A stretch of DNA of 64,000 nt from an archaeon (GTDB lineage: Archaea > Nanobdellota > Nanobdellia > Woesearchaeales > GCA-2686295): the NCBI GenBank assembly GCA_043817405.1, contig JBDRGV010000051.1, forward strand, positions 1,960 through 65,959. Reading direction: 5' to 3'. The notes below the pieces were generated by a model. The model was not told the origin of the DNA and made no database searches. It worked only from the letters and a program-made list of their open reading frames with translations. This document shows positions 23,395-43,800 of this stretch, in pieces. The first letter of the stretch is position 1, and every line of letters begins with the position of its first letter. A program made the translations under genes and the position numbers.

Positions 23395-23398
23395 TGGT

Positions 23399-26256: not shown

Positions 26257-26287
26257 AATAAGTTTCTAGTTTATAATTCATACTTCT

Positions 26288-27577: not shown

Positions 27578-27982
27578 ATGAATCAACAAGCAGTAAATCA
27601 TGGTCAAGAATTTGATGAATCAGTTGCTAAATATAATGAATGGTTAGCATCATCAGAAGATTCAAAAGTTCAGAGAAGAAATAATTGGAAAGATTTCCTT
27701 AAAGGCATGGGTTCTGTTTTAGATATTTTTGGTAATTATTTTAGTAAAAAAAATATGAATGGTCACCCACTATATTCTAGAGTTGATTTGACAGCTGAAC
27801 AAAAAGATTCCATCGGACTTGCTTCTGATTGGCAAAGAGTTGATAGAAATTTAGATAAAATTATTTTAGGTGATTCATCAAATGGAGATATTTCTGTTGA
27901 AGATGCAAAAGCTGGAAAACAGCTGATTCAACAAATGTATGATAATTATAAGAATGTTTATATTTCTCACACCTTAAAATAA
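27578..27982 (+). CDS. Hypothetical protein
   Basis: 134-aa ORF. Confidence 0.4.
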   Translation: MNQQAVNHGQEFDESVAKYNEWLASSEDSKVQRRNNWKDFLKGMGSVLDIFGNYFSKKNMNGHPLYSRVDLTAEQKDSIGLASDWQRVDRNLDKIILGDSSNGDISVEDAKAGKQLIQQMYDNYKNVYISHTLK

Positions 27983-28057
27983 TAACTTCTCTTTTTGAAA
28001 CTTCTTCACTTCGTAAAAAGTAACAAATATTATAAAGTAAAAGATTATTTTATTATT

Positions 28058-28909
28058 ATGAAAGCAACAGAATTATACAAAAAGCTTGAGAAAGAATTCA
28101 TTACTTCTGAAATGAGTGATGACTGGGCTGAACGCATGGAGTCCATTAAGAATTTTCTTAGTGAGAACTACAGAAAGAGGTCAATGGGTTTAGTTTGTGA
28201 TTTTGCAACAAAAATAAATAAAGTTTATACAGCTGTTTTTCCATCAAACAAAGTCATGCAGAGAATTCTTGACGATGAAGTTCAAGATGCCATGCTATTT
28301 GTTCACCACCCCGCTATTTGGGATATTAGAAATGCTCCAGAAGTTTTTCAGCAAATGGATGGAGAACTATTGCAGAAGTTTAAAGATAGAAGAATTTCAA
28401 TTTACAATTTACATGTGCCTCTGGATAATTTTGGAGAATATTCAACTTCCGTGACATTGGCAAAAGCTGTCGATGTTAAACCAGGAAAAGCTTTTGGTCC
28501 TTACTTCGGATCCTTATGCGGTGTATTTGGAAAGACCTCCATTGTGACGGTTCAAGATTTAAAAACTAAATATGAAGAAGCTGTCAGACACGAAGTAAAG
28601 CTGTATAACTATGGAACTGATGAAATTAAAGATGGAATGGTTGCAGTTATCGGTGGTGGTGGAAACATGATTGAAATGCTAGAAGAAATAAAAAAAGAAG
28701 GAGTTAATACTTTTGTAACCGGGATTAGCAGTGTAAATTATCATTCTAAAGCATCGCATGAATTCACTGAAAAAAATAAAATAAATATTTTGGGCGGAAC
28801 ACATTACTCTTCTGAAAAGTTTGCCTGCATAGCAATGGTTGATTACTTTAAGAGAGAAAAATTGGATTCTGAATTTGTAGAAGATGAAGCTGTAATGGAA
28901 GATATGTAG
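28058..28909 (+). CDS. Nif3-family (DUF34) dinuclear metal-centre protein
   Basis: LFVHHPAIW and ILGGTHYSSEKFA (the GHYxTE-like motif). Start moved to the internal ATG (MKATELYKK). Confidence 0.7.
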   Translation: MKATELYKKLEKEFITSEMSDDWAERMESIKNFLSENYRKRSMGLVCDFATKINKVYTAVFPSNKVMQRILDDEVQDAMLFVHHPAIWDIRNAPEVFQQMDGELLQKFKDRRISIYNLHVPLDNFGEYSTSVTLAKAVDVKPGKAFGPYFGSLCGVFGKTSIVTVQDLKTKYEEAVRHEVKLYNYGTDEIKDGMVAVIGGGGNMIEMLEEIKKEGVNTFVTGISSVNYHSKASHEFTEKNKINILGGTHYSSEKFACIAMVDYFKREKLDSEFVEDEAVMEDM

Positions 28910-28939
28910 GGTTTCGAAAATATTTTTTGTAGTCAACAC

Positions 28940-29356
28940 TTAGCATGCTCTTAACGCTTTCAGGAAGTCATCTTTCGTCTTATTCTTAAATTTACCCTTT
29001 TCATAATTTTTCCAGAGTTTCTCCACTCTCTCTGCAAAGATTAAGTCTTCTTTTGATTCCTCTATGACTGTTTTTAAACATTCGTTAAATGATTTCATTA
29101 ATAACTTAACCTTGTTATTTCTAATGTTAAGAACATATAATTGCGTACCACTTACTACTCTTGATTTATTTATTATATTTTCTTCTTCTAGTTCTCTTAT
29201 AAGCTCATATAATTTGGGTTTTGAAATATTGATTTCTTCCAGGATATCTCCAGCTGCAAAGTCTAATTCTCCCAATTCAAGGATGAATTCTACAACTCTG
29301 TTTCTTAAAGTTTTTCCATAAAGCTGAGAAAAAGCTCCAAATTTTGTTTCTTTCAT
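28940..29356 (-). CDS. Winged-helix transcriptional regulator
   Basis: LRNRVVEFILELGELDFAAGDILEEINISKPKLYELIRELEEENII is wHTH-like. Confidence 0.5.
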   Translation of the reverse strand: MKETKFGAFSQLYGKTLRNRVVEFILELGELDFAAGDILEEINISKPKLYELIRELEEENIINKSRVVSGTQLYVLNIRNNKVKLLMKSFNECLKTVIEESKEDLIFAERVEKLWKNYEKGKFKNKTKDDFLKALRAC

Positions 29357-29507
29357 AATTTTAGTTTGTTTTCGATTTCTACCGATATTAAAGCTTTATT
29401 CATAGTTAATTTTAGTTAACTATCAGTTAATAATAATTAACTCTCCTTTATAAATATTTCTATTATTACTAAAATATTAATGGTTATTAAGTGTTACTGT
29501 AGAAAAA

Positions 29508-29521
29508 CCGGAAATTCTCCG
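29508..29521. promoter_or_regulatory. CCGGAAAT-nn-TCCG motif, copy 1 (ccggaaattctccg)
   Basis: Intergenic, upstream of wHTH regulator 28940..29356. Confidence 0.35.
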
Positions 29522-29573
29522 AAAATTCTTTATTAAACATCTATTAATTTAATGAATCTTTAAAGTCTTGTTT

Positions 29574-30491
29574 TTATGCAAATTCATACTGCTTTATGTA
29601 TTCTTCATAGCAAAACTTACAGATGGCTTCTTTTTTTCCTCTTTTAGAATTATTTAATGCAGTTATATAACTTGATTTTCTTGTGGCCCTAATTGCTAAC
29701 GGCATTAAATCTTTGTTCATTAACAACCAATTTAATAAAAGTCTACCGACCCTTCCATTTCCATCTATAAAAGGGTGAATTATCTCAAATTGAGAGTGAG
29801 ATTGAAAAGCTATTTCAAATTCATTCATACTCTTGAAAGCTTTTTTTATCCACTTTAAAAGCTGTTTCATTCTTTCTTCAACAAACAAGAAAGAAGTTGT
29901 GAGTTCATCTCCCGCATAGTTTTGAGCTTTCTTGTATTTTCCCAAAGTTTCATCTGATTCTATATCTTCATTGACTAACGCATGCAACATCAACAAGGCA
30001 TTTTCATTCGGTAAAGAATCTTTGTTATTCTCAACATAGGTCCAAGCTTTTAGCATATTGGAAGCCATGTACAGCTCTTTTTTTGTATGATTATTTGGAA
30101 CTGCGTCTGCAAACAAATAATTAAAAGTCTCACCAGGAGTCATAGTAGATCCTTCTATTTCATTACTATTGGCTATGAATACACTAAGAAATCTCTCTTT
30201 GGATTTCTCAACTGAGACTTCATCTAAAGAATCTAAATATTTCTTTTGTTCAGCAGATAGTTTTTTCATTTCTTCATGTTTTTTATAAGATAACTCATCT
30301 TTGAAATCAACCAAAATCCAATCTTCCTCTTTGTAAGAATATTTCATACACTCAAATTCTTCTTTTGGAACCGCTCTTTTTTTGCCAATATATTTTATGG
30401 TCTTTTGAATTACTTTGTCTTTTTTACGTATAGAATCAACTAGATAAAGATACTCGTTTCCATTTATTTTCTTTGTAACAATACTGACCAT
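29574..30491 (-). CDS. Fic/Doc family protein (AMPylase-like)
   Basis: HPFIDGNGRVGRLLLNWLL is the canonical Fic motif HPFx(D/E)GNGRxxR. Confidence 0.8.
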   Translation of the reverse strand: MVSIVTKKINGNEYLYLVDSIRKKDKVIQKTIKYIGKKRAVPKEEFECMKYSYKEEDWILVDFKDELSYKKHEEMKKLSAEQKKYLDSLDEVSVEKSKERFLSVFIANSNEIEGSTMTPGETFNYLFADAVPNNHTKKELYMASNMLKAWTYVENNKDSLPNENALLMLHALVNEDIESDETLGKYKKAQNYAGDELTTSFLFVEERMKQLLKWIKKAFKSMNEFEIAFQSHSQFEIIHPFIDGNGRVGRLLLNWLLMNKDLMPLAIRATRKSSYITALNNSKRGKKEAICKFCYEEYIKQYEFA

Positions 30492-30500
30492 TTTGTTATT

Positions 30501-30513
30501 TAACCACTACATA
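30501..30513. promoter_or_regulatory. TGTAG box (taaccactacata), TATA-adjacent copy in the Fic-1 promoter; second copy at about 30565-30577
   Basis: The minus strand reads TTTATAAATATGTAGTGGTTAAA + about 9 nt + ATG of Fic-1. The same 13-mer repeats about 64 nt further upstream. Confidence 0.35.
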
Positions 30514-30670
30514 TTTATAAATCTTTCGACTAAAACAAAAAAAAGTTAGAAAAAAATAAGGTTTTTAACCACTACATAAAGAAAATCATCCAGCAACCCT
30601 CGAAAGAATCACTGTGGATCATTTTAATAATAATAGTATTATAATATTTATAAAATTTATTGAAAAATCA

Positions 30671-30684
30671 CCGGAAATCTTCCG
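30671..30684. promoter_or_regulatory. CCGGAAAT-nn-TCCG motif, copy 2 (ccggaaatcttccg)
   Basis: Intergenic, upstream region of Fic 29574..30491. Confidence 0.35.
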
Positions 30685-30745
30685 ATTTGTTAAACTTTAT
30701 TCTGAGACAACTTCAGCAATGTTTTCACACTGTTTTAATTTTCCT

Positions 30746-31219
30746 TTATTCATAAAGTAGATTAGTGTCAGTATTGTCTTTCTTATATTCAACTGAGAAA
30801 AAAGAAACATTTGATGAATCTCCAAGTTCTCTCTTAAGATATTTTCGCATTTTTTTTATTTCTTTTTTTGTAAGGTTGTCGATGGAAAATTCAATATCTC
30901 CGCGAGTATAAATGTCTGCCATTAAAGGCGATTTCTCAAACGATATATCGGGCTTTTTCTGCTGTAGCATTTTTCCCACAACAGAATAAAAATTACTTGC
31001 CTGCTCAGCAAAAAAAGGAATAGTGTTGCCTGTTTCTATAATATCTATATTTGCGTCTTTTTGGTTCGGAAAATACAACAATGCATAAGTGTCATTAGTA
31101 CCGGGAGATGAAACCTTCAAAGCATACAAGAAAACATCTGATTCACTTTGAGCTATTTCTGATTTTAACTTTTCTTCATCAAGGTCTCTAATCAACCTCA
31201 AAAGTGTTGCTTTAGGCAT
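30746..31219 (-). CDS. Hypothetical protein (start re-called)
   Basis: CTTTATAT lies about 27 nt upstream of the ATG (MPKATLLRLIRD), giving a leaderless geometry. The ORF-track start at 31408 would run through the promoter motif. Confidence 0.4.
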   Translation of the reverse strand: MPKATLLRLIRDLDEEKLKSEIAQSESDVFLYALKVSSPGTNDTYALLYFPNQKDANIDIIETGNTIPFFAEQASNFYSVVGKMLQQKKPDISFEKSPLMADIYTRGDIEFSIDNLTKKEIKKMRKYLKRELGDSSNVSFFSVEYKKDNTDTNLLYE

Positions 31220-31254
31220 TTTAAGAAAAGAAAAGCAGTTATGCATATAAAGCT

Positions 31255-31273
31255 TTCCGGAAATCTTCCGGAA
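31255..31273. promoter_or_regulatory. CCGGAAAT-nn-TCCG motif, copy 3 (ttccggaaatcttccggaa), abutting the TATA box of gene 30746..31219
   Basis: Longest and most palindromic copy. Sits immediately upstream of CTTTATAT at the BRE position. Confidence 0.4.
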
Positions 31274-31296
31274 TTTATTATAAAAGCTATATAAAC

Positions 31297-31665
31297 TTGT
31301 TTCTAAGACAGATTGATTATGAAAATAAACAAAAAAGTTGGATTGAAACAACAAGCATAATTTTGGTTTTAATTTTTGGTTTGTCTTATTACATTTTGTT
31401 ACTATCATTTTTTAGTCATTATGTTGGGAAAGCAGGCATTCTAATGACTAAATTGTATGAAAACAATAAGAAAGTTTTTGTGGTTGTTAGTACCTTAGTT
31501 TTTTTTGGGATTATGTTTCCTATTCTAAGTCAACCTTTAGGTTCTGAAAAAGTTTTTGAAATATACTGTTATGTAATATTAGCAGGTATAGTTACGTATG
31601 TCGTTACATGGTTAGCGAAAGAAAAAGATTCTACTACAAAAGATAAAATAAAAAAAGTCAAATAA
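31297..31665 (+). CDS. Small membrane protein (TTG start; alternative ATG at 31444)
   Basis: Three hydrophobic segments; start uncertain. Confidence 0.3.
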   Translation: MFLRQIDYENKQKSWIETTSIILVLIFGLSYYILLLSFFSHYVGKAGILMTKLYENNKKVFVVVSTLVFFGIMFPILSQPLGSEKVFEIYCYVILAGIVTYVVTWLAKEKDSTTKDKIKKVK

Positions 31666-31765
31666 AGTGTTAAATCATGTATAATTTTATTCTACCCCCA
31701 TCCCCTACAAGTACCTTTTCTCCAAACCAAAACTCTTAAAAACCACCATCCCTTTTCTTTTTCCA

Positions 31766-32284
31766 ATGAACGTAAAATCCGCAATCCAATCTCGAAGAAG
31801 CATTCGTAAGTACAAAGATAAACCTGTTCCAGATAAACTCATAAATGAAATAATAAACTCAGCTCGTTTAGCGCCTTCTGGCAACAACATTCAGCCTTCT
31901 AAATACTTAATTATTAAAGATGAGAAAACTAAAAAGGAACTAAAAGATAACAAAGTAATTAGAGATGGCTGGGAATACAAGGCTCCAGTAATAATCGTTT
32001 GTTGCACCAATCCAGAAGCATACACTAAAAGAGACAAAAATTGGGATGAAGAAAATAAAATAAGGGCAATAAGAGATCTATCAATAGCTTCTTCATATCT
32101 AATGCTTCAAGCAACTGAATTAAAACTTGGTACTTGCTATGTTGGCTGGATTGATAAAGAAAAAATAAAAGAAGTTCTTAAAATTCCTAAACATTACATT
32201 GTACCCTACATAATTACATTAGGTTATCCTGATGAATCTCCAGGACCCAGACCTAGAAAAGAAATGAATGAAATAATTCTGTAG
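31766..32284 (+). CDS. Nitroreductase family protein
   Basis: RRSIRKYKDKPV...ARLAPSGNNIQP is the nitroreductase N-terminal signature. 172 aa. Confidence 0.75.
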   Translation: MNVKSAIQSRRSIRKYKDKPVPDKLINEIINSARLAPSGNNIQPSKYLIIKDEKTKKELKDNKVIRDGWEYKAPVIIVCCTNPEAYTKRDKNWDEENKIRAIRDLSIASSYLMLQATELKLGTCYVGWIDKEKIKEVLKIPKHYIVPYIITLGYPDESPGPRPRKEMNEIIL

Positions 32285-32287
32285 GAT

Positions 32288-32303
32288 TTCCGGAAATTAC
32301 TCC
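32288..32303. promoter_or_regulatory. CCGGAAAT-nn-TCC motif, copy 4 (ttccggaaattactcc)
   Basis: Intergenic, between the nitroreductase and the MNT-HEPN operon. Confidence 0.3.
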
Positions 32304-32387
32304 AAAAGAATTAAGGATTAATATTTATAAAGTTAAGCACACAAAAACCGATAACTTTAAATATCAGTTGAGAATATTAGTTATCAA

Positions 32388-32918
32388 ATGGTTATTAAAG
32401 ATATCAAAAATAAAATTGCAGAATACTTTTTCCTAAATCCGACAATAAAACTAAGAGTCAGAGAAATAGAAAGAAAAACAAAAACAGCCCTCCCATCAGT
32501 TATTCGCTACACTCGAGAACTTGAAGAAGAAGACATCCTGAAAAGCCAAAACATTTCAAATGTAAAGCTTTACTCCGCAGACAGAGCATCAAAAAAATTT
32601 CTACTCGGGAAAAAAATTTACAACTTGAAACGAGTTTTTAATACAGGACTAGTGAATTACCTTATAAAAGAATACGACAACTCACCAATAATACTATTTG
32701 GATCATACTCGAAAGGAGAAGACATAGAAGATAGTGATATAGACTTGTACATAGAAAGCCCAAGCAAAACTAAAGCTAAAATAGAAAAATATGAAAAAGA
32801 ACTTCAGAGAGACATTCAGATATTTAAATACAACAAATTTAAAGAAATAGAAAACAAAGAACTAGCAAACAACATAATAAACGGAACAATACTACATGGA
32901 TTCATAGAGGTGTTTTAG
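32388..32918 (+). CDS. Minimal nucleotidyltransferase (MNT) with N-terminal HTH
   Basis: LFGSYSKGEDIEDSDIDLYIE matches GSxxxGxxxxxSDIDL. The stop is adjacent to the start of the HEPN gene. Confidence 0.7.
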   Translation: MVIKDIKNKIAEYFFLNPTIKLRVREIERKTKTALPSVIRYTRELEEEDILKSQNISNVKLYSADRASKKFLLGKKIYNLKRVFNTGLVNYLIKEYDNSPIILFGSYSKGEDIEDSDIDLYIESPSKTKAKIEKYEKELQRDIQIFKYNKFKEIENKELANNIINGTILHGFIEVF

Positions 32919-33338
32919 ATGAAAGAAAGCTGTTGGAATGACTGCATAGAGTCAAATTCCTCAATAAAAATTACATCCGACAAAGCAAAAGCAATATCTC
33001 TAATCGAAACAGCAGAAGGGAGAATTGTTTATTTAAAAGAAGCAATCATAAAAGAAGAAACCGCGAATTATATATTTGAAAGTATCTACACATCAATTCT
33101 AGAATTACTCCATGCTTTGACACTTAAAGAAGGATACAAAGTCCAAAATCATATTTGTCTGGGATTCTACCTAAAAGACGTGTTAAAAAAAGACGACTTA
33201 TTCAGAACATTCGATGATTTACGCTACAAAAGAAACTCAATAACATACTACGGAAAAAGAATGAATTATGAAACCGCAAAGAAAGCAATAGCAGATGCCA
33301 AGAAACTAATAGAAAAAATCAAACAGATAAATTCTTAA
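32919..33338 (+). CDS. HEPN-domain protein (partner of MNT)
   Basis: All-helical, 139 aa. DLRYKRNSITYYG sits at the position of the HEPN Rx4-6H motif, with Tyr in place of His. Confidence 0.5.
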   Translation: MKESCWNDCIESNSSIKITSDKAKAISLIETAEGRIVYLKEAIIKEETANYIFESIYTSILELLHALTLKEGYKVQNHICLGFYLKDVLKKDDLFRTFDDLRYKRNSITYYGKRMNYETAKKAIADAKKLIEKIKQINS

Positions 33339-33420
33339 TAATTATATCCTTCAACTCATATGCCCAACCAAAACCTTTATTCCTATCCTCACCAAACCAC
33401 CAGCTTAAAAAACAACAAAA

Positions 33421-33500
33421 TCTTTCTTCTTTTAATGAACGTAAAAACTGCCATCGAATCTCCAAAACCAAGACCTAGAAATAAAATAATTCTTCAATCT
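33421..33500 (+). pseudogene. Decayed partial duplicate of the nitroreductase gene (N-terminal start joined to C-terminal end)
   Basis: aatgaacgtaaaaactgccatcgaatctcc matches the 31766 start ATGAACGTAAAATCCGCAATCCAATCTCG. ccaagacctagaaataaaataattct matches its 3' end ccagacctagaaaagaaatgaatgaaataattctg. The upstream aaaccaccagc box is also copied. Confidence 0.45.
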
Positions 33501-33856
33501 TCTCTGTGATTCAACATATACATTGTGCCTAATGACAAATATATACAATCCAATAACATCATCTCAATTCCTATAAAACTAATCAAAGATACTTTTTTTT
33601 CTTCTTTATGATGTGCAACTCTTTCTTCCATAAAATTTTCATCTGATTCATATGCTAGTTTTCTTGCTGCAACTGAATCTGCATATGCAATGTCTTTTTC
33701 CAATTGAGATTCAGAATATTCTCTCAGACATTCATATATAACTTCAGGGTCTCACAAAAGGAGCAATGAAAACTTCTGAAATCACAAAGCACACACTATC
33801 AAACATCTATGTTGCAGAAAAGTTCTTGGATGTAAAGTTTGAGATAGAAGGGAAAG

Positions 33857-34303
33857 TTATTCGGGTTGATTAGTAAGTTTCTTTTCAGATTTCTTTCGTT
33901 TTTTTTCTCGTCGAGCATCATATATTGTAACACTTAAAAGTTGCAACCATAAAGTTCCTCCACCTATCCAGCCGATAATCGCTCCTTTCTTTTTTTCATT
34001 TTGATAAATATTATTCTCTGAAATATAAGCTTCATTTGTTTCTAGTTTTTGTTTTTCATGTTTAAGAGAGTCAACATATGACAAATCGATTTTCACTTGT
34101 TCTGACAAATAAGTTTCAAGATTATTATATGGAACAGTTATTGAATAATTCAGTTTTTGTTCTAATTTTTGAAATTTCCTAACTAGTGGTGGAGAATAAG
34201 TTTTGTAAAGACCATACGTCAAAATAGTAAAAGACACAGCTAAAGTAGAAAGAAATAATTTTTCACCTGAAGAAAACCAACTATTCTTTTTTTCTTTATT
34301 CAT
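33857..34303 (-). CDS. Membrane protein
   Basis: Two TM segments; 148 aa. Confidence 0.4.
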   Translation of the reverse strand: MNKEKKNSWFSSGEKLFLSTLAVSFTILTYGLYKTYSPPLVRKFQKLEQKLNYSITVPYNNLETYLSEQVKIDLSYVDSLKHEKQKLETNEAYISENNIYQNEKKKGAIIGWIGGGTLWLQLLSVTIYDARREKKRKKSEKKLTNQPE

Positions 34304-34340
34304 AAAAAAGCATTAATAGAATAACACATATTAACATTAT

Positions 34341-34363
34341 ATCGATATATACCTATAGATTTC
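34341..34363. promoter_or_regulatory. Near-palindromic operator-like element, copy 1 (atcgatatatacctatagatttc)
   Basis: Core ctataggtatatacctatag is a perfect 20-nt palindrome; each copy carries an overlapping half. This copy is upstream of membrane gene 33857..34303. Confidence 0.4.
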
Positions 34364-34826
34364 AAAAAGGCCTATAATGTTTGTGAGATGAAATGAAAGG
34401 AAGATTCCAAAAACTCAAATCATTATATTTAGCGTATTCTATAAGTTGGCAAAAAGAAAAAAGGCCTAAAGTGTAAGAAAGACCTAGATAAACACTAGCA
34501 AAAATTGAATCTTTAAAATCATCTTTCTTTATATCATCCAAAACTCCTAAATTTTCAATCTCTTCTTTTTGTTCTTTTAAGTTTTCAAAATTTATTGTTA
34601 GACCTTCTTTATCAACAATTTCTTCAAAAGAAGAATAATACTCTAAATTATTCATAGTGCTAACAATTTTATTGTACTTATCAAGTAAAGGATCTGAAGG
34701 TTCAGAAATATAATAAGCAGAGTGAATAAACAAAGGAATAGATAAAATAAACGCAGAGCCATAAACTCTTAATGGATGTTTTTTAATTGTCTCTTCTAAA
34801 CTTTTATATAATTTTTTAATACCCAT
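34362..34826 (-). CDS. Membrane protein
   Basis: Hydrophobic segments. TTTATAC lies 25 nt upstream of the ATG. Confidence 0.4.
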   Translation of the reverse strand: MGIKKLYKSLEETIKKHPLRVYGSAFILSIPLFIHSAYYISEPSDPLLDKYNKIVSTMNNLEYYSSFEEIVDKEGLTINFENLKEQKEEIENLGVLDDIKKDDFKDSIFASVYLGLSYTLGLFSFCQLIEYAKYNDLSFWNLPFISSHKHYRPF

Positions 34827-34863
34827 AAAAAAAGAAGAGACAAAGAATAGTATAAACCTTCTA

Positions 34864-34885
34864 TCGACATATACCTATAGATTCT
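34864..34885. promoter_or_regulatory. Near-palindromic operator-like element, copy 2 (atcgacatatacctatagattc)
   Basis: Sits immediately upstream of the TATA box (TTTATAC) of gene 34362..34826. Confidence 0.4.
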
Positions 34886-35522
34886 CATTCAAAAAAGGCA
34901 TTACTTTCTTTTCAGCGACACGAATGTGAAACTGAAAAGTAGAATAGGAAACACCTGCAATTTTAGCAAGTGATTTCAAATCAATCTTTCTCGGATAGTT
35001 ATAGTAATTATTTTGAATTGCTATCTGCAAACAATTTCTCTGTTTTTTAGTAAGATCTGGAAATACATTCAAGGTTTGCACATTGTTTATTTTCTTTTGT
35101 TTTATCCAATGAAGCTTTGCATTAAACTTTCCATAGGATTTTATTATCTTCATCAATTTCTCTTTATCCCATGAAGCCAGTTCAAAAACATAGGTTCCTT
35201 CTCTGTTAACCATTGAAGGCTTTATTTGAAAAACGCCTGCTTGAAAAAAATCCTTGTTGGCAATATGTTGTTTTGCCCTTGCAATAAGCAGATTATTCTC
35301 ATACTCCAGATTCAGTGTTCTCTTATCTTTTTTCATGTCAGAAATAAAACTCTTAACCCCTTTTTCAGAACCAAGCAATTGACTCGTTGCAGTAACTTCA
35401 ATGTAATCATCAAAGACTTTACTGGAAACAGGATAAGCTAAAACAACGACCTTATGCTTTCTGGCCAAATTACTTGCTAAAGCATTCTCATTCCAAGGAA
35501 CCGATAGTTTCATTACCCACAT
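34875..35522 (-). CDS. HTH_10 (Bat/COG3413-like) archaeal transcriptional regulator
   Basis: C-terminal LTKKQRNCLQIAIQNNYYNYPRKIDLKSLAKIAGVSYSTFQFHIRVAEKKVM is the HTH_10 signature. Confidence 0.55.
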   Translation of the reverse strand: MWVMKLSVPWNENALASNLARKHKVVVLAYPVSSKVFDDYIEVTATSQLLGSEKGVKSFISDMKKDKRTLNLEYENNLLIARAKQHIANKDFFQAGVFQIKPSMVNREGTYVFELASWDKEKLMKIIKSYGKFNAKLHWIKQKKINNVQTLNVFPDLTKKQRNCLQIAIQNNYYNYPRKIDLKSLAKIAGVSYSTFQFHIRVAEKKVMPFLNENL

Positions 35523-35523
35523 G

Positions 35524-35545
35524 AACTATAGGTATATACCGAGAT
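35524..35545. promoter_or_regulatory. Near-palindromic operator-like element, copy 3 (inverted; aactataggtatataccgagat), abutting the start codon of the HTH_10 regulator
   Basis: Directly adjacent to the ATG of 34875..35522. Candidate autoregulatory site. Confidence 0.4.
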
Positions 35546-35562
35546 TTAAAAATCTAATGCTC

Positions 35563-36111
35563 TCAAAAAACATGCCCCAACAGCACCTTAACCCCTATCC
35601 CAATCAAAACTATTCCTCCTACCAGCATGCTCACTTTTGGTTTGAACTTTAATTTACTTCCAAAGAATAATGCAAATGTTCCTACCATAAACACCACTAG
35701 TCCAACTATTATTGCAGAACTCCATAGTTCTATGTTTATTATACTAAAGGTTATCCCCAAAGCCAACGCGTCTATGCTTGTTGCTATGGATACTAACATC
35801 AATGGTTTCCATTCAGTCCATTTTATCGTAATCTCTTTTTCTTTTGAGAAACTCATTAGTATCATTCTTATTCCTATGAATAATAACAGTCCAAAAGCAA
35901 CCCAGTGGTCAAATCCTTGCATATGATCTAAGAAAGAAGTTGATAACAAATAACCAATAACTAGCATTATAAAGTGAAATACTCCAAAAGATAAAGGAAT
36001 TATCAAATCTTTAAAATTTATTTTCTTTGAAAAAGAACCTATTACAGTAGATACTGCAAATATATCCATCGATAAGGCCAAAGCCGTTAAAAAAACAAAT
36101 CCAACATCCAT
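35563..36111 (-). CDS. mntP: Manganese efflux pump MntP (DUF204)
   Basis: LALSMDIFAVS and SIATSIDALALGITFS, the paired MntP half-motifs. Six TMs; 182 aa. Confidence 0.7.
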   Translation of the reverse strand: MDVGFVFLTALALSMDIFAVSTVIGSFSKKINFKDLIIPLSFGVFHFIMLVIGYLLSTSFLDHMQGFDHWVAFGLLLFIGIRMILMSFSKEKEITIKWTEWKPLMLVSIATSIDALALGITFSIINIELWSSAIIVGLVVFMVGTFALFFGSKLKFKPKVSMLVGGIVLIGIGVKVLLGHVF

Positions 36112-36173
36112 AGAATAAACAAATAGTTGTTTCTTATATAAAGTTAACTAGAATATCCACACTAAAATTATAA

Positions 36174-36212
36174 GTGTCTACAAAAACAAAAAAGTTTATA
36201 AATGTAGACACC
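36174..36212 (+). repeat. Direct repeat copy 1 flanking Fic-2 (gtgtctaca-N21-tgtagacacc; contains TTTATAAA). Acts as the Fic-2 promoter/operator
   Basis: 9-bp inverted arms gtgtctaca / tgtagacac around a TATA box. ATG at 36225. Confidence 0.45.
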
Positions 36213-36224
36213 TTATAATTATTT

Positions 36225-37124
36225 ATGTTCATAGAAAAAAGAAAACAAGGGAAAAAAGAAAAATATTACTTAATCCATTCTTACAGAGTCGGTGACAAAG
36301 TAAAAAGAATATCAAGGCATCTTGGATCAAACTTAAATAAGAACACCCTCGCACAACTAAGAGCAAGAGCAGAAATATTAATTTTAGAACAGATAAAAGA
36401 ACAGAGTCCCTACGAGTTTGAACTAAATAAAGATGAAATTGAATATTACAATAAATTTAATCATAAAATTGAGATAATCCACTTTCAAGAAAAAGATTGG
36501 CAACTATTCACACAAGCATTTACCTACAACACAAATGCGATAGAAGGCTCAACAGTCGTGAAAACAGAAGTAAAAAAGTTGTTGGGAAAAAAAGAAAGCC
36601 CAACAAATGATGATGAGAAAGAAACCTTAAATGTTGCCAATGCAGTTGAATTTATAAGAAAAACAAAAGAAAAGTTATCGGTTGAACTAATTAAAGAAAT
36701 TCACAAGATTTGCTTTCAAAGCACTAAACAATTTGCAGGAACAACTAGAAAAGTTGAAGTTGTTATAAGAGACTCTCATGGGAACATAGTTCATCAAGGA
36801 GCACCTGCAAATATGGTTGAAACATTACTAAAAGAACTGGTTGAGTGGTATCATAAGCACAAGAATAAATATCCTCCACTACTCCTGGCAGCAATTACAC
36901 ACAACCAATTTGAAGATATTCACCCATTTCAAGATGGAAATGGTAGAGTTGGAAGATTATTGTTAAATTATGTTTTATTACAGTTTAATTATCCTCCAAT
37001 AAATATCACTTTAAAAGACAAAGCTAAATACTATGAAACATTGCAGAGATATCATAAAACAAGCGACATTAAATCAACTTTAAAATTTCTAATAGCAGAA
37101 TACAAAAAACAATACAAGAAGTAG
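36225..37124 (+). CDS. Fic/Doc family protein, paralog 2
   Basis: HPFQDGNGRVGRLLLNYVLL Fic motif. The N-terminal region resembles Fic 29574..30491. Confidence 0.8.
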   Translation: MFIEKRKQGKKEKYYLIHSYRVGDKVKRISRHLGSNLNKNTLAQLRARAEILILEQIKEQSPYEFELNKDEIEYYNKFNHKIEIIHFQEKDWQLFTQAFTYNTNAIEGSTVVKTEVKKLLGKKESPTNDDEKETLNVANAVEFIRKTKEKLSVELIKEIHKICFQSTKQFAGTTRKVEVVIRDSHGNIVHQGAPANMVETLLKELVEWYHKHKNKYPPLLLAAITHNQFEDIHPFQDGNGRVGRLLLNYVLLQFNYPPINITLKDKAKYYETLQRYHKTSDIKSTLKFLIAEYKKQYKK

Positions 37125-37165
37125 GTGACCACAAAAACTAAAAAACTCAACATTTGTAGACACCT
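37125..37165 (+). repeat. Direct repeat copy 2, immediately downstream of Fic-2 (gtgaccacaaaaactaaaaaactcaacatttgtagacacc)
   Basis: About 75% identical to copy 1, including tgtagacacc. Followed by a TATA-rich stretch and small ORF 37257. Confidence 0.4.
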
Positions 37166-37256
37166 ATTTTTATAGATATTATATAAAGTTAATGAAAAAC
37201 ACTATGAATAAATTTATATATAAAGAAATTCAATTTCATATACGAGGTGATTTTTC

Positions 37257-37397
37257 ATGGCACTAGATTATACACAAATAATGTTAGCAATTTGTATCGG
37301 AACTTTGGCAGCTTTAGTATACACATTAAGAGTTCTTGTATCATTAGAGAAAAAAGTTTCCAGATTATTAAAACATAATGATATAAGTGAAGAATAG
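37257..37397 (+). CDS. Small (46 aa) membrane peptide; not in the ORF track
   Basis: GAGGTGA lies 8 nt upstream. Translation MALDYTQIMLAICIGTLAALVYTLRVLVSLEKKVSRLLKHNDISEE. Confidence 0.35.
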   Translation: MALDYTQIMLAICIGTLAALVYTLRVLVSLEKKVSRLLKHNDISEE

Positions 37398-37474
37398 AAC
37401 TATTGAAAGATAAGTTAAAAAAAGTTGTTTAAAGTTAACTCAACCTTTTTATATCTCTTCACATTCTTTTCCAT

Positions 37475-38140
37475 ATGAAAGTATACTTAGCCAACAAAAC
37501 TTCAGAATCATTCATTAAAGAATTTGAAAATCTTTCTAATGTTAAAGTAAACTATGAAATTAACTCAAACATTCTAAACCAAAAAGATTGTTTCTTAATT
37601 GATGTTTATAATACATTCATCAAACCAGTAACAACTATTGATGATGATATGACCATGGAAAGATTAGGAAAAATGGCTTATCTTAGGGGTGAAAAAGTTT
37701 CAGAAGATTTTATCATAAAAGGACAACCTGTTAGAAAAGGATTTAAAGAATTCTTAAAACATTACAATGACGTAAAAATAGGAATCCATTCCGACAGCAT
37801 ATATGATAATCAATTTCAAGAACTACATGATTATTGGGGTTTTGAAGGATTGGTTGAAAAATACTTCTATGAAATAACTGGAATTCCAGAAAAAGAATGG
37901 ATGTTCAAAAACTCTAATAAAATGGATTCGAAGTACTTTATACAAACATGGGATAATAAAAAATATATTAAAGATTTCAAGTATATGATTCAAGCAATGA
38001 ATACAAATAAAGAAAACACTTTAATCATAGGAGATGGACTAACAGACATTACTCCCGCAGTTCATTATAATATTGACCTCTTAGTGGTTCCACCGCAAAC
38101 AATGCAACCAAACTTTGATTTTAAAGAGTTAATAAAATAA
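37475..38140 (+). CDS. Hypothetical protein
   Basis: 221-aa ORF. Confidence 0.4.
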   Translation: MKVYLANKTSESFIKEFENLSNVKVNYEINSNILNQKDCFLIDVYNTFIKPVTTIDDDMTMERLGKMAYLRGEKVSEDFIIKGQPVRKGFKEFLKHYNDVKIGIHSDSIYDNQFQELHDYWGFEGLVEKYFYEITGIPEKEWMFKNSNKMDSKYFIQTWDNKKYIKDFKYMIQAMNTNKENTLIIGDGLTDITPAVHYNIDLLVVPPQTMQPNFDFKELIK

Positions 38141-38183
38141 CTCTCTCTAAACCTATTTAAATCTCTCTTTATTCCCTTTCTTC

Positions 38184-38732
38184 ATGGTTAAAGAAATTAT
38201 GAAATACATTTGCGAATTCAAAACTTGTGGAGCAGAATATAATTCCAGAAGTGAAGCTCAGAGATGTGAAGATTTTGGATTCATCGGTCCTGAGATTAAA
38301 AGTAATTTTATTTTCCGTTCCGACGCTCCTGGCCATGGTAAATATTATAATATCACTACTAGCACCATTGTGGAAGGCCATCGTAGAACAACTGAATACA
38401 GACAAATTTACGGAGACTTAGAATCTCTAAAGATAAAAGAACAAAGATTTAATCAAAAGAGTGAGGAACAACAGAAGAAAGAGCTTCAAGAGATTGACAT
38501 GATGGATATTATACCAACTACTACTAAATCATTAGCAATTTCTCTTGTTCAGGGTTATTACAAGATTCTTCCAAAAAAAGAATTCCAAGAAGTAAGCGAA
38601 TTTCTTTATAATGCTAATTGTATGGCTCCTTATAGAGAACCCTGGTATATGGGCTTTAATTTAAAATTCCAAAGAGAACCTTTTTTAAAAGACATGGATA
38701 CTATAATTGAAGAACTAAAGAAGTTTCCTTAA
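38184..38732 (+). CDS. Hypothetical protein
   Basis: 182-aa ORF. The N-terminal CEFKTCG...RCEDFG region may be a metal-binding knuckle. Confidence 0.4.
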   Translation: MVKEIMKYICEFKTCGAEYNSRSEAQRCEDFGFIGPEIKSNFIFRSDAPGHGKYYNITTSTIVEGHRRTTEYRQIYGDLESLKIKEQRFNQKSEEQQKKELQEIDMMDIIPTTTKSLAISLVQGYYKILPKKEFQEVSEFLYNANCMAPYREPWYMGFNLKFQREPFLKDMDTIIEELKKFP

Positions 38733-38779
38733 TACTTTCCTCAACCTTTTTATATATCTTTTAATTCCCATTCTCTACA

Positions 38780-39124
38780 ATGTCATTAAATGATGCACTA
38801 GCCAATATGAATGATCTTTATAATAAGATTACTGATAAAGGAATGGATATTTATCAGTTTGATTATAGCTATTCACTTTGGAAGTATCATCGATATGAGG
38901 ATGTAACTGACATATACACTATTCTTCTTCCTAAAGGTAAAAAATATATTTCTGAAGATAACATTGAAAGACTAAAGGGTTATGATAAGAAAATCCCAAG
39001 AACATCTATGCCTCTAAAGGATATAGTATCAGGAAGAATAAAGATTAAACCTGTAAAAGAAATGCCGACATTAAATACACTCCGAGAACTAATCTCTCAT
39101 GGAGTTCATTTTTCTAGAAGATAA
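38780..39124 (+). CDS. Hypothetical protein
   Basis: 114-aa ORF. Confidence 0.4.
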   Translation: MSLNDALANMNDLYNKITDKGMDIYQFDYSYSLWKYHRYEDVTDIYTILLPKGKKYISEDNIERLKGYDKKIPRTSMPLKDIVSGRIKIKPVKEMPTLNTLRELISHGVHFSRR

Positions 39125-39125
39125 T

Positions 39126-39380
39126 TCACTTCTTATATATCTTCTTTCGATGTCCTACTTTTATTACCAGAATAAACAACTCTTTTCTATAGATATCTGC
39201 AATTATCCTATAATCTCCTGCTCTTAATTTGTATGATTTTTCACCAACCAATTTTTCAAAGTATGCTTCAGGCCTTATCCTGGATCTTTCTATCACAGAT
39301 ATTATTCTTTTTCTAATCTCTTTTGGTAGTTTTGCTAGTTGTTTCTTAGCTAAATCCGAAAGTTCTACTGTATAACTCAT
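39126..39380 (-). CDS. relE: RelE/ParE-family toxin
   Basis: KSYKLRAGDYRIIADIYRKELFILVIKVGHRKKIY is the RelE signature. Overlaps the upstream antitoxin gene by 4 nt. Confidence 0.7.
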   Translation of the reverse strand: MSYTVELSDLAKKQLAKLPKEIRKRIISVIERSRIRPEAYFEKLVGEKSYKLRAGDYRIIADIYRKELFILVIKVGHRKKIYKK

Positions 39381-39646
39381 AGTCCTAACTCTTTTTTAAC
39401 TTCAGCAAGAGTGTGTGTCTTGCCTTCTTTGTATTCTTTTCTAGCTATTTCTATATCTTTCAGAGTCTCTTCAGATAGCTCCATTGTATCTTCTAACAAA
39501 TCCCATAGAACATCTTCATAGCTTTCATTAGAATATCTTTTCTTTGCTTTTAATTCGTTTAACAAATCTTTGCTTATTTGAATAGTTGTATTGGCCATAG
39601 CATCTATATAAGTCACTATAGTATTTAAAGATTGTGCTTTGGACAT
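39377..39646 (-). CDS. Antitoxin partner of RelE (start re-called to ATG)
   Basis: 89 aa and acidic. TTTTTATTA lies about 23 nt upstream of the ATG (MSKAQSL). The ORF-track start is a GTG. Confidence 0.5.
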   Translation of the reverse strand: MSKAQSLNTIVTYIDAMANTTIQISKDLLNELKAKKRYSNESYEDVLWDLLEDTMELSEETLKDIEIARKEYKEGKTHTLAEVKKELGL

Positions 39647-39696
39647 AATTGTATTTAGAATAATCACCTTAATAAAAACTATGCAACAAAACTCGC

Positions 39697-39708
39697 AAGA
39701 TTTCCGGC
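39697..39708. promoter_or_regulatory. CCGGAAAT motif, copy 5 (reverse orientation, caagatttccgg)
   Basis: Between the divergent promoters of the RelE-antitoxin operon and the HExxH protein gene. Confidence 0.3.
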
Positions 39709-39753
39709 ATACCTTTATAAAATTCTCTTTATCCCCATTCTTAGGTGGTTATT

Positions 39754-40221
39754 ATGGAAGAATACACACAAGAACAACACGGAAAAGATTCTAAAATCTA
39801 TGATCCATATCCTTTTATAAGGAAAATAATAAAAACCAATTTTATTCTAAGTTGTGCTGTTTTGACTTGGGGTTTTACGCTGGCAACTCTCAATTATAAA
39901 GCTTGCAGGTCTGAAAAGATAGTTGATGAAACACACTTGCAAGAGATAATCATAGAAGAGTCCAAAGCTTTGGATATGAAAAATAAGGATATCACCGGAA
40001 GATTCACCGAAGCACCTTTTGGCCATGGTCAGGCGATAAAACTTGATTATAATAAATACGAGATAATATTAGATAAGAAAGGAAGAAACAGGGGTGTTCT
40101 GAAGCATGAACTGTATCATATACTCAAAGGCCATGCAGAAGAAAAAGACAACCTGTTGATATATCTGTTCATAGAAGAACCACAGGCAGCTCTTTACGGA
40201 GCCTATGGTATAAAACTATAA
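39754..40221 (+). CDS. Membrane-anchored HExxH zincin-like protein (DUF45/SprT-like?)
   Basis: N-terminal TM, then LKHELYHILKGHAEE (HELxHxxxxH). AGGTGG lies 6 nt upstream of the ATG. Confidence 0.4.
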   Translation: MEEYTQEQHGKDSKIYDPYPFIRKIIKTNFILSCAVLTWGFTLATLNYKACRSEKIVDETHLQEIIIEESKALDMKNKDITGRFTEAPFGHGQAIKLDYNKYEIILDKKGRNRGVLKHELYHILKGHAEEKDNLLIYLFIEEPQAALYGAYGIKL

Positions 40222-40296
40222 GAAAACACCATGCTATAAAAAATTAAAGCAAGTTTTATATACTTTAATAAAAATAATCAATCGGAGTTGATAAAC

Positions 40297-40500
40297 ATGG
40301 TAAAAACTAAAATGAGTAAATGTTGTAATTTAAGTAAATATGGAACAGGATGTTGCGCCTATTTCTTAGGATTTATTGGTGCAGCTATTTATTACATCTC
40401 AACAGCTACAGGTTTTTGGAACGGAGTACTTGGTGTTCTACAAGCAATAGTGTGGCCTTTGTTCTTAGTGCTAGATTTATTAAAGTTTCTAGGCGCATAG
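40297..40500 (+). CDS. Small membrane protein with N-terminal CC..CC motif
   Basis: MVKTKMSKCCNLSKYGTGCCAYFLGF followed by two TM helices. GGAG lies upstream. Confidence 0.4.
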   Translation: MVKTKMSKCCNLSKYGTGCCAYFLGFIGAAIYYISTATGFWNGVLGVLQAIVWPLFLVLDLLKFLGA

Positions 40501-40514
40501 AATAAATAATCATT

Positions 40515-40535
40515 CTAGAACAATCTTTGTTTTTT
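40515..40535 (+). terminator. Repeat/terminator-like element, copy 1 (ctagaacaatctttgtttttt)
   Basis: 5-bp hairpin aacaa-tct-ttgtt plus a T6 run, right after the stop of 40297..40500. Confidence 0.4.
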
Positions 40536-40581
40536 AAATTAATTTCAAAAAATTTATAAATATATTCCTCAGCAGATAAAC

Positions 40582-40884
40582 ATGAGGGTTTTGGCTTTAT
40601 TTTCACTGGTAATAGTAGCTCTGCTAATTTCATGCTCTACAAATATAACACTCCAAGACAGGGTTAATGATGCTTTAGTAGGTAAAAACATAACTCATTA
40701 TTCTATAGCAGGAGTACCACTAACTCATGTAATAGAAGAATCTGACATTGGAAAAGCAGAGAACGCGTTGTATCAAAAACAAGAATACATTAGAGTAAAG
40801 ATAGGTCAAACTATATCTTGGAACCTGTATCTTGACAAAGAAACACTAGAGATTATACACACAGAACAATTATTTGTAACATGA
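40582..40884 (+). CDS. Small lipoprotein
   Basis: Signal peptide plus lipobox LLISCST. Confidence 0.45.
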   Translation: MRVLALFSLVIVALLISCSTNITLQDRVNDALVGKNITHYSIAGVPLTHVIEESDIGKAENALYQKQEYIRVKIGQTISWNLYLDKETLEIIHTEQLFVT

Positions 40885-43800
40885 AAAAAATTATTCCTTG
40901 GATATTAGTATTCTTAATCGTTAGTATGATTGTTTCTGCAGAAGTAAGAGTATCAAATAACGAAAAAAGCTTTATCTCCAAAGAAGAAAAGAAGGAAGTC
41001 ATTCTTAACATGCCAGGTATAAAGCAAACAGATATAACCATGAAGAAAGAACTGAAAGAACAAGGTTACAAATATACTTTCTATCAACAAAAATATAAAA
41101 ATTTAGAGGTATATGGTGCACAGATAAGCATCATCGAGAAAAACGAGAAATTAGTTTCTATAAAATCCAATTATGAAGAATTTGATATAAACACTAATCC
41201 ATTGTTAAGCTCAGAAGATGCTAGGGAGATAGTCTGCGATGATATTGGACTTGTTGTGAAATTAGAGCCAAAACTAATCATCTACAAAAACCAATTCAAA
41301 GGAGCCGATTATCTACTGGCTTACATCATAGAAACGCCACTGCTAGAAGGACCTGAAAGATGGCGATACATCATTGATGCAAGGACTGGAAATATAGTTA
41401 TAAAAGAGACTCTTGTAATAGAAATATATGGTTATGTTACAGCACAAGTATTTCCAGAAACACCTGCGCAAACACAAATAACAGTCAATCTGACAAATAA
41501 CAATATAACTTTATGGCAGAATGGTAGCTTTGTCGCTTCTACATTGACCAATAATGGATTTTACAACATATCAGGATATGATAACAATATAATATTAAAA
41601 TCAAATCTTGAAGGACCATATGTAAAAGTTCTGAACGCAAACCAGACAAGAGCCTATTTTGAGTACAACGGAACTGGAAATGAGAGTTACAGCTGGAACT
41701 GGAATGTCTCTGACAACAACTCTGACAGGAATGAAGAGTCAAACATGTTCTATCACATAAATATTGCTCATGATTATTTCACGAGCGGTGAACCTTTCAA
41801 CATAACACAGATGAATTATCAGATGAACGCTACAGTACAATACGGTTTAGTATGCAATGCATTCTATGATACAGTTGACAAAAATATATACTTCTACGGT
41901 GGCGCTGGTGGTTGCGACAACCCTGCACTTAGTGCAGATATAATTTATCATGAATATGTTCACGCAGTGACCACTGAGATTTACGATTGGTTTCCTTATT
42001 ATAAAATCACAGGCGCCATGAGTGAAGGTTTCTCAGACTATTTCGCAGCCACAATAACAAATGACCCTGCAATTGGAAATGGCAACTGGAATCCATACAT
42101 TAGGAACATCAGCAATACAAGAAGCTATATCAACAACTATGCAGAATGTCCATCAGGTCAAAATCCTAGTCCAGGCAATGATTACTGTTATGTGCATTCA
42201 AACTCAGACATTTTTAGCGGAGCATTATGGGATTTTAGGCAATTAGTAGGTAATGAAACTGCAGATACCTTGATAATGAGAACAATAAAAGCACAGCCTC
42301 ATAGTTTCTCAGAATTCATGGAAGACATGCTAATATTAGATGATGACAATGCTAATCTTTCTGATGGAACACCAAACAGTACATTCATCTGCCAGGCATT
42401 TACCAACCATGATATATATTCTTATTATTGTAATGAGACAAAACATTCTTTTGACATATCTGAAACTACTTTAAACTGGTACGATGCCGCTGCAAACGGC
42501 CAAATAGTATCTTCATCTGAATCAACTGATGGAACACAAGGAATGGATGATGATGACATAACAAAGCCAATCAATCTAAGCTTTTTATTCCCTTTCCACG
42601 GAAGCAAGTACTCAAAAATATACATCGGTTCAAACGGTCTGGTGACCTTGCAGAATTACTCAGTTTCTATATTCTGGGATGACTGCTTCATACCAGACAG
42701 CAACCTGCCAAACACAGTCATCGCACCATTATGCACTGACCTTGATCCAAGCAGTGGCGGAGATGTGTATTATTGGTCTCAAAGCGACAAGTTTGTCGTT
42801 GAGTGGAAAAATGTTGTGCCTTATGGACAGAGCGAACAACTAAATATAGAATTGATAATTTTCAATAACGGAAGCATAGTCATGCAGTTCCAAAACATCT
42901 CTGGAATCAGCAGCACTTCAACAAAGATAGGTGTAGAAGATGATATTGGTTTGGCAGCAGATCTGTTGAATTATACTGATGTAAATTCTCTTGATCCTTC
43001 TGCGTTCATATTCATACCAACAAATACTGCTCCTAATCTGACTTCTTCTGCTCCAGACATAAATACAAGCATTTCAGAACCTAACAATCAGACTTTCAAC
43101 ATAAGTTATGATGATTTTGAGAGCGACACTATATCTATAAAATGGTATGTTGATGGTATTCTTTTTGCTGAGAACTCTACGATATTTGCTTATAACAGCA
43201 CATACACTTCTTCAGGAAGCCATAACATAACAGTAAATATCAGCGATTATCTCGACACTACAAGTTATTCATGGATGCTTGTTGTCAACAACACAGATAC
43301 TATACCTTCCATTAACAGTTATTCTCCTGGCAATGGCAATGTCTCCATGGTCGAGAATAACACACAATTTTTCAACCACTCATCAAGTGATGTTGATGGT
43401 GATACATTAAGCTATTCATGGTATCTTAATAATTCTTTAGAAGCAAACACTAGTTATTGGAGCTTTACAGCCAACTTCACTACTGCCGGAAACTGGAATT
43501 TAACCTTGGTTGTCTCAGACCCTCAAGGTAATAATGTTAGCAATTACTGGAATCTGCTTGTGAACAACACCAACAGAGCACCTATCTGGAACTCATTCGA
43601 AAACCAATCAATACTAAGCAACGAAACGCTCAATTATTACTTGAACACGACTGATCCTGACGGAGATAGTGTGAGCTTTTGGGTGAATGAAAGTGCTGTA
43701 AATGTTTCTACAGACAACCTGACTTATACACCTGTTAATTTCACAGGAAACAAATCCATAAGTATAGCTGCTATGGACTATGAATCCAATACTACAATTA

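Follow-up and report, generated by a model that had tools for sequence, protein, structure and literature searches.

Background

A short motif recurs between the genes of an accessory island in an archaeal contig, which raises the question of whether it marks a set of local operators or belongs to something more general. The window, meaning the whole stretch of 64,000 nucleotides analysed here (contig JBDRGV010000051.1 of assembly GCA_043817405.1, positions 1,960 to 65,959), comes from a member of the Woesearchaeales. Its GC content is 32.7%, and its proteins have their best relatives in metagenome-assembled genomes (MAGs) of Nanoarchaeota and Woesearchaeota. An earlier note on this DNA had listed five copies of the motif, at about 29508, 30671, 31255, 32288, and 39697, had read them as a transcription-factor operator set in promoter regions of the island, and had named the product of a nearby winged helix-turn-helix (wHTH) gene as the candidate binder. 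We found that the motif is a lineage-wide element of Woesearchaeota-like DPANN archaea and is not private to the island. On balance, it is probably the upstream half of a conserved DPANN promoter module and the docking site of a putative regulator.

Motif copies in the window

The motif has the consensus CCGGAAATCTTCCG(G), with a core 14-mer, and it is intergenic at every copy in the window, as had been claimed. Its recurrence is also real. A search for CCGGAAATNNTCCG with at most one mismatch gave four matches in the window against 0.03 expected from shuffled sequences (none of 100 shuffles reached four), and to these a half-site at 32286–32297 is added. On a simple gene map of 80 open reading frames (ORFs), which leaves 9% of the window intergenic, ATTTCCGG was the most enriched intergenic 8-mer of the window, with six occurrences in five intergenic regions against 0.07 expected. 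Exact copies of this 8-mer were confined to intergenic DNA, none being found in the ~58 kb of window coding sequence.

We also searched the window with a profile hidden Markov model (HMM) trained on 43 module sequences, all from other genomes and none from the window. The top matches fell on sites that had already been listed, at 31253–31296 (E = 2.5e-9) and 39710–39667 (E = 1.9e-5), while the remaining sites were recovered at 30665–30688 (E = 6.6e-5, motif part only), 32288 (E = 0.11), and 29504 (E = 0.18). The five locations stand, but the copy at 39697 lies on the minus strand with one mismatch, and the copy at 32288 is only a half-site.

Occurrence across genomes

One genome per species (185,579 species, 596 Gb) was scanned with the pattern CGGAAGATTTCCGG-N0-30-TTTATA. 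The scan returned 117 stretches, 20 of them from MAGs labelled Woesearchaeota, Nanoarchaeota, Nanoarchaeia, or Nanobdellota, and two more from an unclassified bin, one of which had the same architecture. Several DPANN MAGs contributed more than one contig (4, 3, and 2). The other matches were scattered over unrelated bacteria, one each, which is consistent with a chance background. DPANN matches span 31–57% GC, and the same core was present in at least 15 differently named MAGs. When sites with at most one mismatch were counted, 17 extra sites were found in ~457 kb of DPANN DNA, whereas the bacterial chance loci (644 kb) had none. The density of ~1 site per 27 kb in the DPANN loci scanned would extrapolate to tens of sites per genome.

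We found no description of the element in full-text literature on the motif and on DPANN promoter motifs, and Rfam covariance models gave no match at E ≤ 1 in window positions 23000–41000.

Module anatomy and promoter phase

The module consists of CCGGAAATCTTCCG(G)(A), a T-rich linker, a purine-rich TFB recognition element (BRE), a TATA box of the form TTATTAA, ~22 nt, and the ATG. Within the motif lies the dyad CGGAA-N3-TTCCG, and a second CCGGA follows one helical turn on. On the side that the search left unconstrained, the column profile has G/A at +14, A at +15, T at +19 (16 of 22), an A-rich BRE at +26/27, and TTATTAA at +32 to +38. A TATA-like heptamer in phase on this side was seen in 12 of 20 DPANN matches versus 1 of 91 bacterial matches, and the start codon lies ~47–51 nt from the 14-mer in the DPANN matches.

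Metagenome contigs were scanned separately with TTAATAA-N15-20-CGGAAGATTTCCGG, which yielded 45 stretches with 46 matches. The gap between 14-mer and TATA box was 18 nt in 43 of the 46 and 17 nt in the other three, and never 15, 16, 19, or 20. In about half of the dereplicated metagenome loci, an ATG follows 20–24 nt after the TATA box, which is the geometry that the spacing of TATA box and transcription start site gives to leaderless archaeal transcripts. The left neighbour in this set was the end of a co-oriented gene in 15 cases, the start of a divergent gene in 10, and distant in 7.

Twelve sites in the DPANN loci were not seeds of the search, and their contexts were tandem (6), divergent (2), contig edge (3), and within a predicted ORF (1), with no convergent case. 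Of the eight sites in tandem or divergent contexts, seven lay 46–57 nt from the downstream start and one lay 88 nt from it, while the upstream stop lay anywhere from 1 to 288 nt away. Given this variable distance to stops and constant distance to starts, the element is placed relative to the downstream promoter, in fixed TATA phase, and not relative to gene ends.

Orthologous promoters were compared as well. In contigs L167 and L250, an orthologous divergent pair (a 106/156-aa protein and a DUF1003 protein) has coding DNA that is ~79% identical. In this one pair examined in detail, the intergenic regions align poorly, and an invariant 16-nt block, CGGAAGATTTCCGGAT, is kept together with the TATA box. 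In both L152 and L216 the motif precedes RNase J, and in L151 and L249 it precedes DUF5678/retropepsin pairs.

Because the identical 14-mer recurs beside unrelated genes with a fixed 18-nt spacing to the TATA box, the motif is not an operator set of the island. The reading as a transcription-factor site is nevertheless supported in part, since the motif is non-random, intergenic, dyad-symmetric, and tied to archaeal BRE/TATA promoters; it is the island specificity that falls away, with the same 14-mer found in many DPANN genomes.

Window copies compared with the module

Two of the window copies represent the full module. The first is doubled and palindromic, as had been described (TTCCGGAAATCTTCCGGAA, 31255–31273, with the 14-mer at 31257–31270 on the plus strand), and it occupies the middle of a region of divergent promoters, with TATA-like boxes on both sides. 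On the plus side, 18 nt separate it from ATATAAA at 31289–31295, and a further 23 nt lead to an ATG at 31319; this is canonical geometry, but the ATG opens an ORF of only 13 codons. On the minus side, TTTATAT (31251–31245) follows after 5 nt, and after another 25 nt comes the ATG at 31219 that starts a 157-aa ORFan (30746–31219, minus strand), for which no homologues were found. The second full copy, CCGGAAATCTTGCG, differs from the consensus by one mismatch and lies at 39694–39707 on the minus strand. Next come 18 nt, TTATTAA at 39675–39669, 22 nt, and the ATG at 39646 of a VapB-like/ribbon-helix-helix (RHH) antitoxin-ParE operon (39126–39646, minus strand). On its plus side, a TATA box at 39714–39721, 6 nt off, serves the plus-strand gene 39745–40221.

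The half-site at 32286–32297, ATTTCCGGAAAT, is a perfect palindrome without the TCCG arm (CCGGAAATTACTCC) and begins 1 nt past the stop of a nitroreductase gene (31766–32284, plus strand). Here the fit is approximate: the box TTTATAAA at 32325–32332 starts 21 nt after the 14-mer position (site 32290) and precedes the ATG at 32388 of a wHTH-MNT/HEPN pair (32388–33338, plus strand). A homologous wHTH-MNT adjoins a motif copy in contig L253.

The last two copies have no in-phase promoter plus gene. The exact 14-mer CCGGAAATCTTCCG at 30671–30684 (plus strand) lies behind the ORFan, 61 nt from its stop (30746), and is 179 nt away from the start (30491) of Fic-1 (29574–30491, minus strand). Read on the minus strand, it forms a hairpin plus GATTTTTC, and TTTATAA occurs 16 nt further on, followed by a 16-codon ORF. 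The degenerate copy CCGGAAATTCTCCG at 29508–29521 (plus strand), which is followed by a second unit, CCGAAAATTCT, lies behind Fic-1, 52 nt from its stop (29574), with the wHTH start (29356) another 151 nt away. On the minus strand it gives a weak hairpin and TTTTT, and its geometry is also non-canonical. The placement of the copies in promoter regions thus held for 31257 and 39694, and roughly for 32290, whereas 29508 and 30671 lie behind minus-strand genes. These two sites are probably decayed modules or relic promoters, and they may help to terminate the upstream genes, because a T-run follows the palindrome.

A candidate sixth copy was seen outside the range of the earlier note. The degenerate TCGAAAATCCTCCG at 24683–24696 (plus strand) is followed by 18 nt, ATATAAA at 24715–24721, 22 nt, and an ATG at 24744. 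Downstream is a pair made up of a DUF4258 gene and a Zn-ribbon/MazE gene, and on the other side the ATG of an RHH gene (24335–24634, minus strand) is 48 nt away. Despite this canonical geometry, the copy has no statistical support, with E > 10 in the profile HMM search.

Genes downstream of the motif

Target genes were assigned by Pfam annotation and by clustering of the flanking proteins, in samples that the search patterns bias. Window gene 39377–39646 belongs to a VapB-like antitoxin family that occurs in five contigs including the window, always 47–49 nt from the motif, and MazE/AbrB antitoxins were found downstream in four. A tyrosine recombinase of 265–280 aa is 46–48 nt from the motif in three contigs. 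Further targets are CopG-type RHH, PIN, DUF4258/DUF2283, DUF5678, Fic, HEPN-MNT, and Mrr-type nuclease genes, along with Bro-N/ORF6N-like and RadC-like genes that were judged by eye, without a Pfam scan. Housekeeping targets are RNase J and also MetRS, NrdR-RNR, and SOD, with by-eye assignments among them. The targets are mainly toxin-antitoxin (TA), defence, and mobilome genes, with a few housekeeping genes, a predominance that matches the window and accounts for the clustering of copies in its TA-rich stretch.

An alternative is that the element is a mobile or recombination repeat, either a palindrome like the repetitive extragenic palindromic (REP) sequences or miniature inverted-repeat transposable elements (MITEs), or a cassette-exchange site, which spread along with TA and defence cassettes. 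TA cassettes are flanked by copies in the window, and in L159 two motif sites, at 4510 and 5272, bracket HEPN-MNT; the recombinase genes mentioned above are likewise close to the motif. In addition, homology between L294 and L275 ends 8 nt past the TATA box of the module, and beyond that point the two contigs carry unrelated defence genes, over 2.6 kb and 7.1 kb. We nonetheless regard a mobile origin as quite unlikely. The conserved core is only 14–27 nt, and the R/L boxes of an attC-like site (60–150 nt in attC) are not present; the cassettes are of mixed orientation, each with its own TATA box; and different genomes have copies ahead of the same housekeeping genes, in orthologous places, as with RNase J (L152 and L216) and DUF1003 (L167 and L250). 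No recombinase, integron integrase, transposase, or Y1_Tnp domain of the REP-associated tyrosine transposases (RAYTs) was found by Pfam in the window ORFs scanned. The module pattern had no match in 2.9 million viral contigs. A 15-mer scan of viral contigs was uninformative, with single chance matches only among the matches listed. REP sequences, moreover, are usually species-specific and not phylum-wide.

Two specific identities were rejected. An integron attC site was discarded on the basis of the Pfam result for integrases, the short core, and the mixed-orientation genes with TATA boxes of their own, while a REP/RAYT palindrome was discarded given the lack of Y1_Tnp in the window ORFs scanned and the presence of the core in at least 15 MAGs of 31–57% GC.

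In the L294/L275 pair (3605–3651 and 572–618, respectively), the upstream gene, the module, and the distal flank are common to both contigs, and the unrelated genes between the shared flanks are MazG-like in one and C5-methyltransferase/defence-like in the other. The end of homology so close to the TATA box, with defence genes beyond it that differ between the contigs, hints at a portable "cassette promoter", in which a lineage-wide regulator, of the SOS type or akin to xenogeneic control, would govern TA and defence cassettes by way of the one invariant 14-mer and the module would mark the point at which they are swapped. This is a speculative extension that we hold to be improbable as it stands.

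Candidate binders

The model of an island-specific operator set bound by the wHTH protein (28940–29356, minus strand) can point to the adjacency of this gene to copy 29508, to a weak TrmB-type HTH match, and to the clustering of the window copies within 10 kb. Its orthologues argue in the other direction. At 60–76% identity, they belong to a conserved operon (87-aa protein, wHTH, 83-aa protein) in core-gene surroundings, and no CCGGAAAT site is present in their loci (L122–L133, ~35 kb). What the window does share with L122, L123, L128, and L130 is a wHTH promoter made up of a TATA box, four AGTTAAYT repeats, and then ATGAATAAA. Since the motif also adjoins unrelated genes in many genomes, we regard this model as very improbable, and the wHTH protein was dropped as the binder. 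The AGTTAAYT repeats lie between TATA box and ATG (29395–29449 in the window, 2280–2335 in L122, 9680–9730 in L128), and because they are conserved at orthologues whose loci lack the CCGGAAAT motif, they are the natural candidate for the operator of the wHTH protein itself. The repeats include a perfect palindrome, TTAACTGATAGTTAA. Of the wHTH operon, the window lacks the third gene and retains the first only as an ORF of 16 codons, which runs over the ATG of the wHTH gene.

The RHH protein encoded at 24335–24634 was considered as an autoregulated binder, with homologues adjoining the motif in L149 and L216. It was rejected because ten loci (L297–L309, four homologues) lack the motif. All of the RHH homologue loci that were read share instead a palindrome, TACTTAGTATA(TACTAAGTA), between TATA box and ATG, which is also found in the window at ~24636–24655. 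The RHH gene (RHH_8, minus strand) and a PIN gene (23959–24357, plus strand) are arranged tail-to-tail in the window with an overlap of ~23 nt. A PIN gene is paired tail-to-tail with the RHH gene at every homologue locus that was read, and this unusual convergent TA-like layout, overlapping or abutting, is kept in several Woesearchaeota genomes of 24–50% GC.

An origin-recognition box was also considered, as a copy lies 74 nt from an Orc1/Cdc6-like gene (assigned by eye) in L263 and L292. This idea was discarded because there is a single copy and no repeat cluster.

A putative regulator and the terminator alternative

We infer both protein binding at the motif and its regulatory sign. In the proposed mechanism, a lineage-wide DNA-binding protein, probably a dimer, would recognise CGGAA-N3-TTCCG or the two CCGGA boxes one helical turn apart. 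Sitting ~10 bp upstream of the BRE, it would touch TFB/TBP, and through this contact it would control leaderless transcripts at initiation. A divergent gene would come under the same control if another TATA box adjoined the motif on its far side.

Several observations weigh against such a promoter module. Canonical geometry is absent in two of the five window copies (29508 and 30671), and both candidate binders from the window failed. Both large scans demanded an exact 14-mer and a one-sided TATA box, which biases the gene sets, and because no complete genome was among the DNA scanned, the figure of tens of sites per genome is extrapolated. The extended consensus AAAAATCCGGAAATCTTCCGGATTTTT forms a perfect 12-bp hairpin (−13.1 kcal/mol) followed by the T-run ATTTTTC, and in tandem arrays the motif often begins 0–25 nt past the upstream stop.

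The last two observations would be expected if the element acted as RNA, that is, as a hairpin with an oligo-T tract that terminates or insulates transcription between packed genes, its closeness to promoters being a by-product of short intergenic regions. A consensus scan found terminator-like sequence at 31255–31273 (both strands), 30686–30670 (minus), and 29522–29508 (minus), of which the latter two stand behind the ORFan and Fic-1 in the orientation that a terminator needs. The motif starts 0–14 nt past the upstream stop in L281, L273, L262, L275, and L295. As the account of the module as a whole, however, termination seems unlikely to us. A terminator needs structure only, yet the exact stem sequence is kept across genomes of 31–57% GC, and natural variants (CCGAAAAT..., CCGCAAAT..., ...TTGCG), in a small sample, break the stem without compensation. 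Folds are weak in three of the five window copies (−4.6, −4.4 for 29508, and −1.7 kcal/mol). Many copies are flanked by divergent TATA boxes and so are crossed by no transcript, and there were no convergent contexts among the non-seed sites, for which the constant distance is to the downstream start. The 18-nt TATA phase is left unexplained by the terminator model. The protein-site model is favoured because it explains the GC-independent sequence, the exact spacing, the placement between divergent TATA boxes, the constant start distance, and the uncompensated variants. In tandem arrays, and especially at sites 29508 and 30671, it is plausible that the element also works as a terminator or insulator.

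Comparison with known systems

The motif functionally resembles archaeal upstream activating sites, which lie just upstream of BRE/TATA, as for Ptr2 of Methanocaldococcus jannaschii and TFB-RF1 of Pyrococcus furiosus. It shares with these sites a short dyad at a fixed position upstream of BRE/TATA and, by analogy, would likely act by TBP/TFB recruitment. It differs from them in that its sequence is unrelated, it is lineage-wide at tens of promoters per genome (extrapolated), and it is often shared by divergent promoters.

Sites of the Lrp/AsnC family (feast/famine regulatory proteins, FFRP) are 13 bp long and of the 5-3-5 type, abcde-WWW-edcba. CGGAA-ATC-TTCCG has this 5-3-5 dyad layout, a likeness by architecture only. 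An Lrp/AsnC gene adjoins a site in L281, which is anecdotal. The NrpR operator of methanogens, GGAA-N6-TTCC, has the GGAA/TTCC arms that the motif also contains; identity with it was rejected because the spacer of the motif is 3 nt in every copy and not N6.

Global stress regulons that take in TA modules, integrases, and nucleotide-metabolism genes are known from the bacterial LexA/SOS box and from Sulfolobus Orc1-2, which acts on the ANTTTC promoter motif. The motif likewise stands upstream of unrelated accessory genes (TA, recombinase, Mrr-type nuclease, RadC-like, NrdR-RNR), but it has no sequence similarity to these elements, and it sits upstream of the TATA box, whereas LexA sites overlap the core promoter. 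With bacterial bidirectional terminators and REP sequences it has in common that it is an extragenic GC-rich palindrome with A/T-tract flanks, often right past stops. Unlike them, it has a core that is invariant across GC contents, is TATA-phased, and occurs in untranscribed divergent regions, and no RAYT or other transposase was found in the window ORFs scanned.

Transcription regulation in DPANN archaea is almost unexplored, and the organisms are mostly uncultivated. The motif defines a candidate regulon, predicts leaderless start sites, and is usable as bait for finding the regulator. For annotators, it carries the warning that motifs in "islands" may be lineage-wide promoter parts and not local operators.

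Other features of the window

Besides the genes already described, the region holds a small membrane gene (73 aa, 31444–31665, plus strand), an HTH_10 protein (34875–35522, minus), MntP (35563–36111, minus), and Fic-2 (36225–37124, plus). By Pfam, the TA cluster at 23959–25366 comprises PIN, RHH_8, DUF4258, and Zn-ribbon-MazE. Exact-protein look-ups of Fic-1 and the nitroreductase returned the same strain only, and scans of viral contigs for related loci with Fic-1 or the 39754 gene found none. Two ENA contigs from one sample (L001 and L134) are 99.96–100% identical to window positions 24730–32428 and abut at 29650/29651, inside Fic-1; this is more likely to be an artefact of assembly or of record splitting than a difference between strains.

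A decayed second copy of the nitroreductase gene lies at 33404–33487, just past MNT-HEPN, and is 76–84% identical to the intact gene. In this copy, the promoter and ~13 N-terminal codons are fused to the last ~10 codons (compared with 31735–31796 and 32234–32265). A 152-aa protein at 23399–23857 (minus strand) has weak Pfam matches to Arrestin_N/Arrestin_C and Spo0M, which is unusual for an archaeal genome.

Other short repeats were observed in front of genes. A promoter-plus-leader element of ~32 nt, ACCTTTTTATATCTCTTTTAATTCCCATTCTT, occurs in four copies (37443–37474, 38151–38182, 38744–38775, and 39711–39742) that directly precede the consecutive plus-strand genes at 37475, 38184, 38780, and 39745; only the last adjoins the CCGGAAAT motif. 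The element CTATAGGTATAT(A/G)(T/C)CGA is found at 34329–34361, 34851–34883, and 35520–35550, upstream of three consecutive minus-strand genes that encode two paralogous membrane proteins and the HTH_10 regulator, for which the element may serve as operator. Finally, in L252 (~620–650), L253, and L257, the sequence after the TATA box shares TATATAGTAGTTAC/TATATAGTAATAAC, with unrelated small ORFs starting 48–49 nt after the TATA box, and this shared stretch may be a further operator or leader element.

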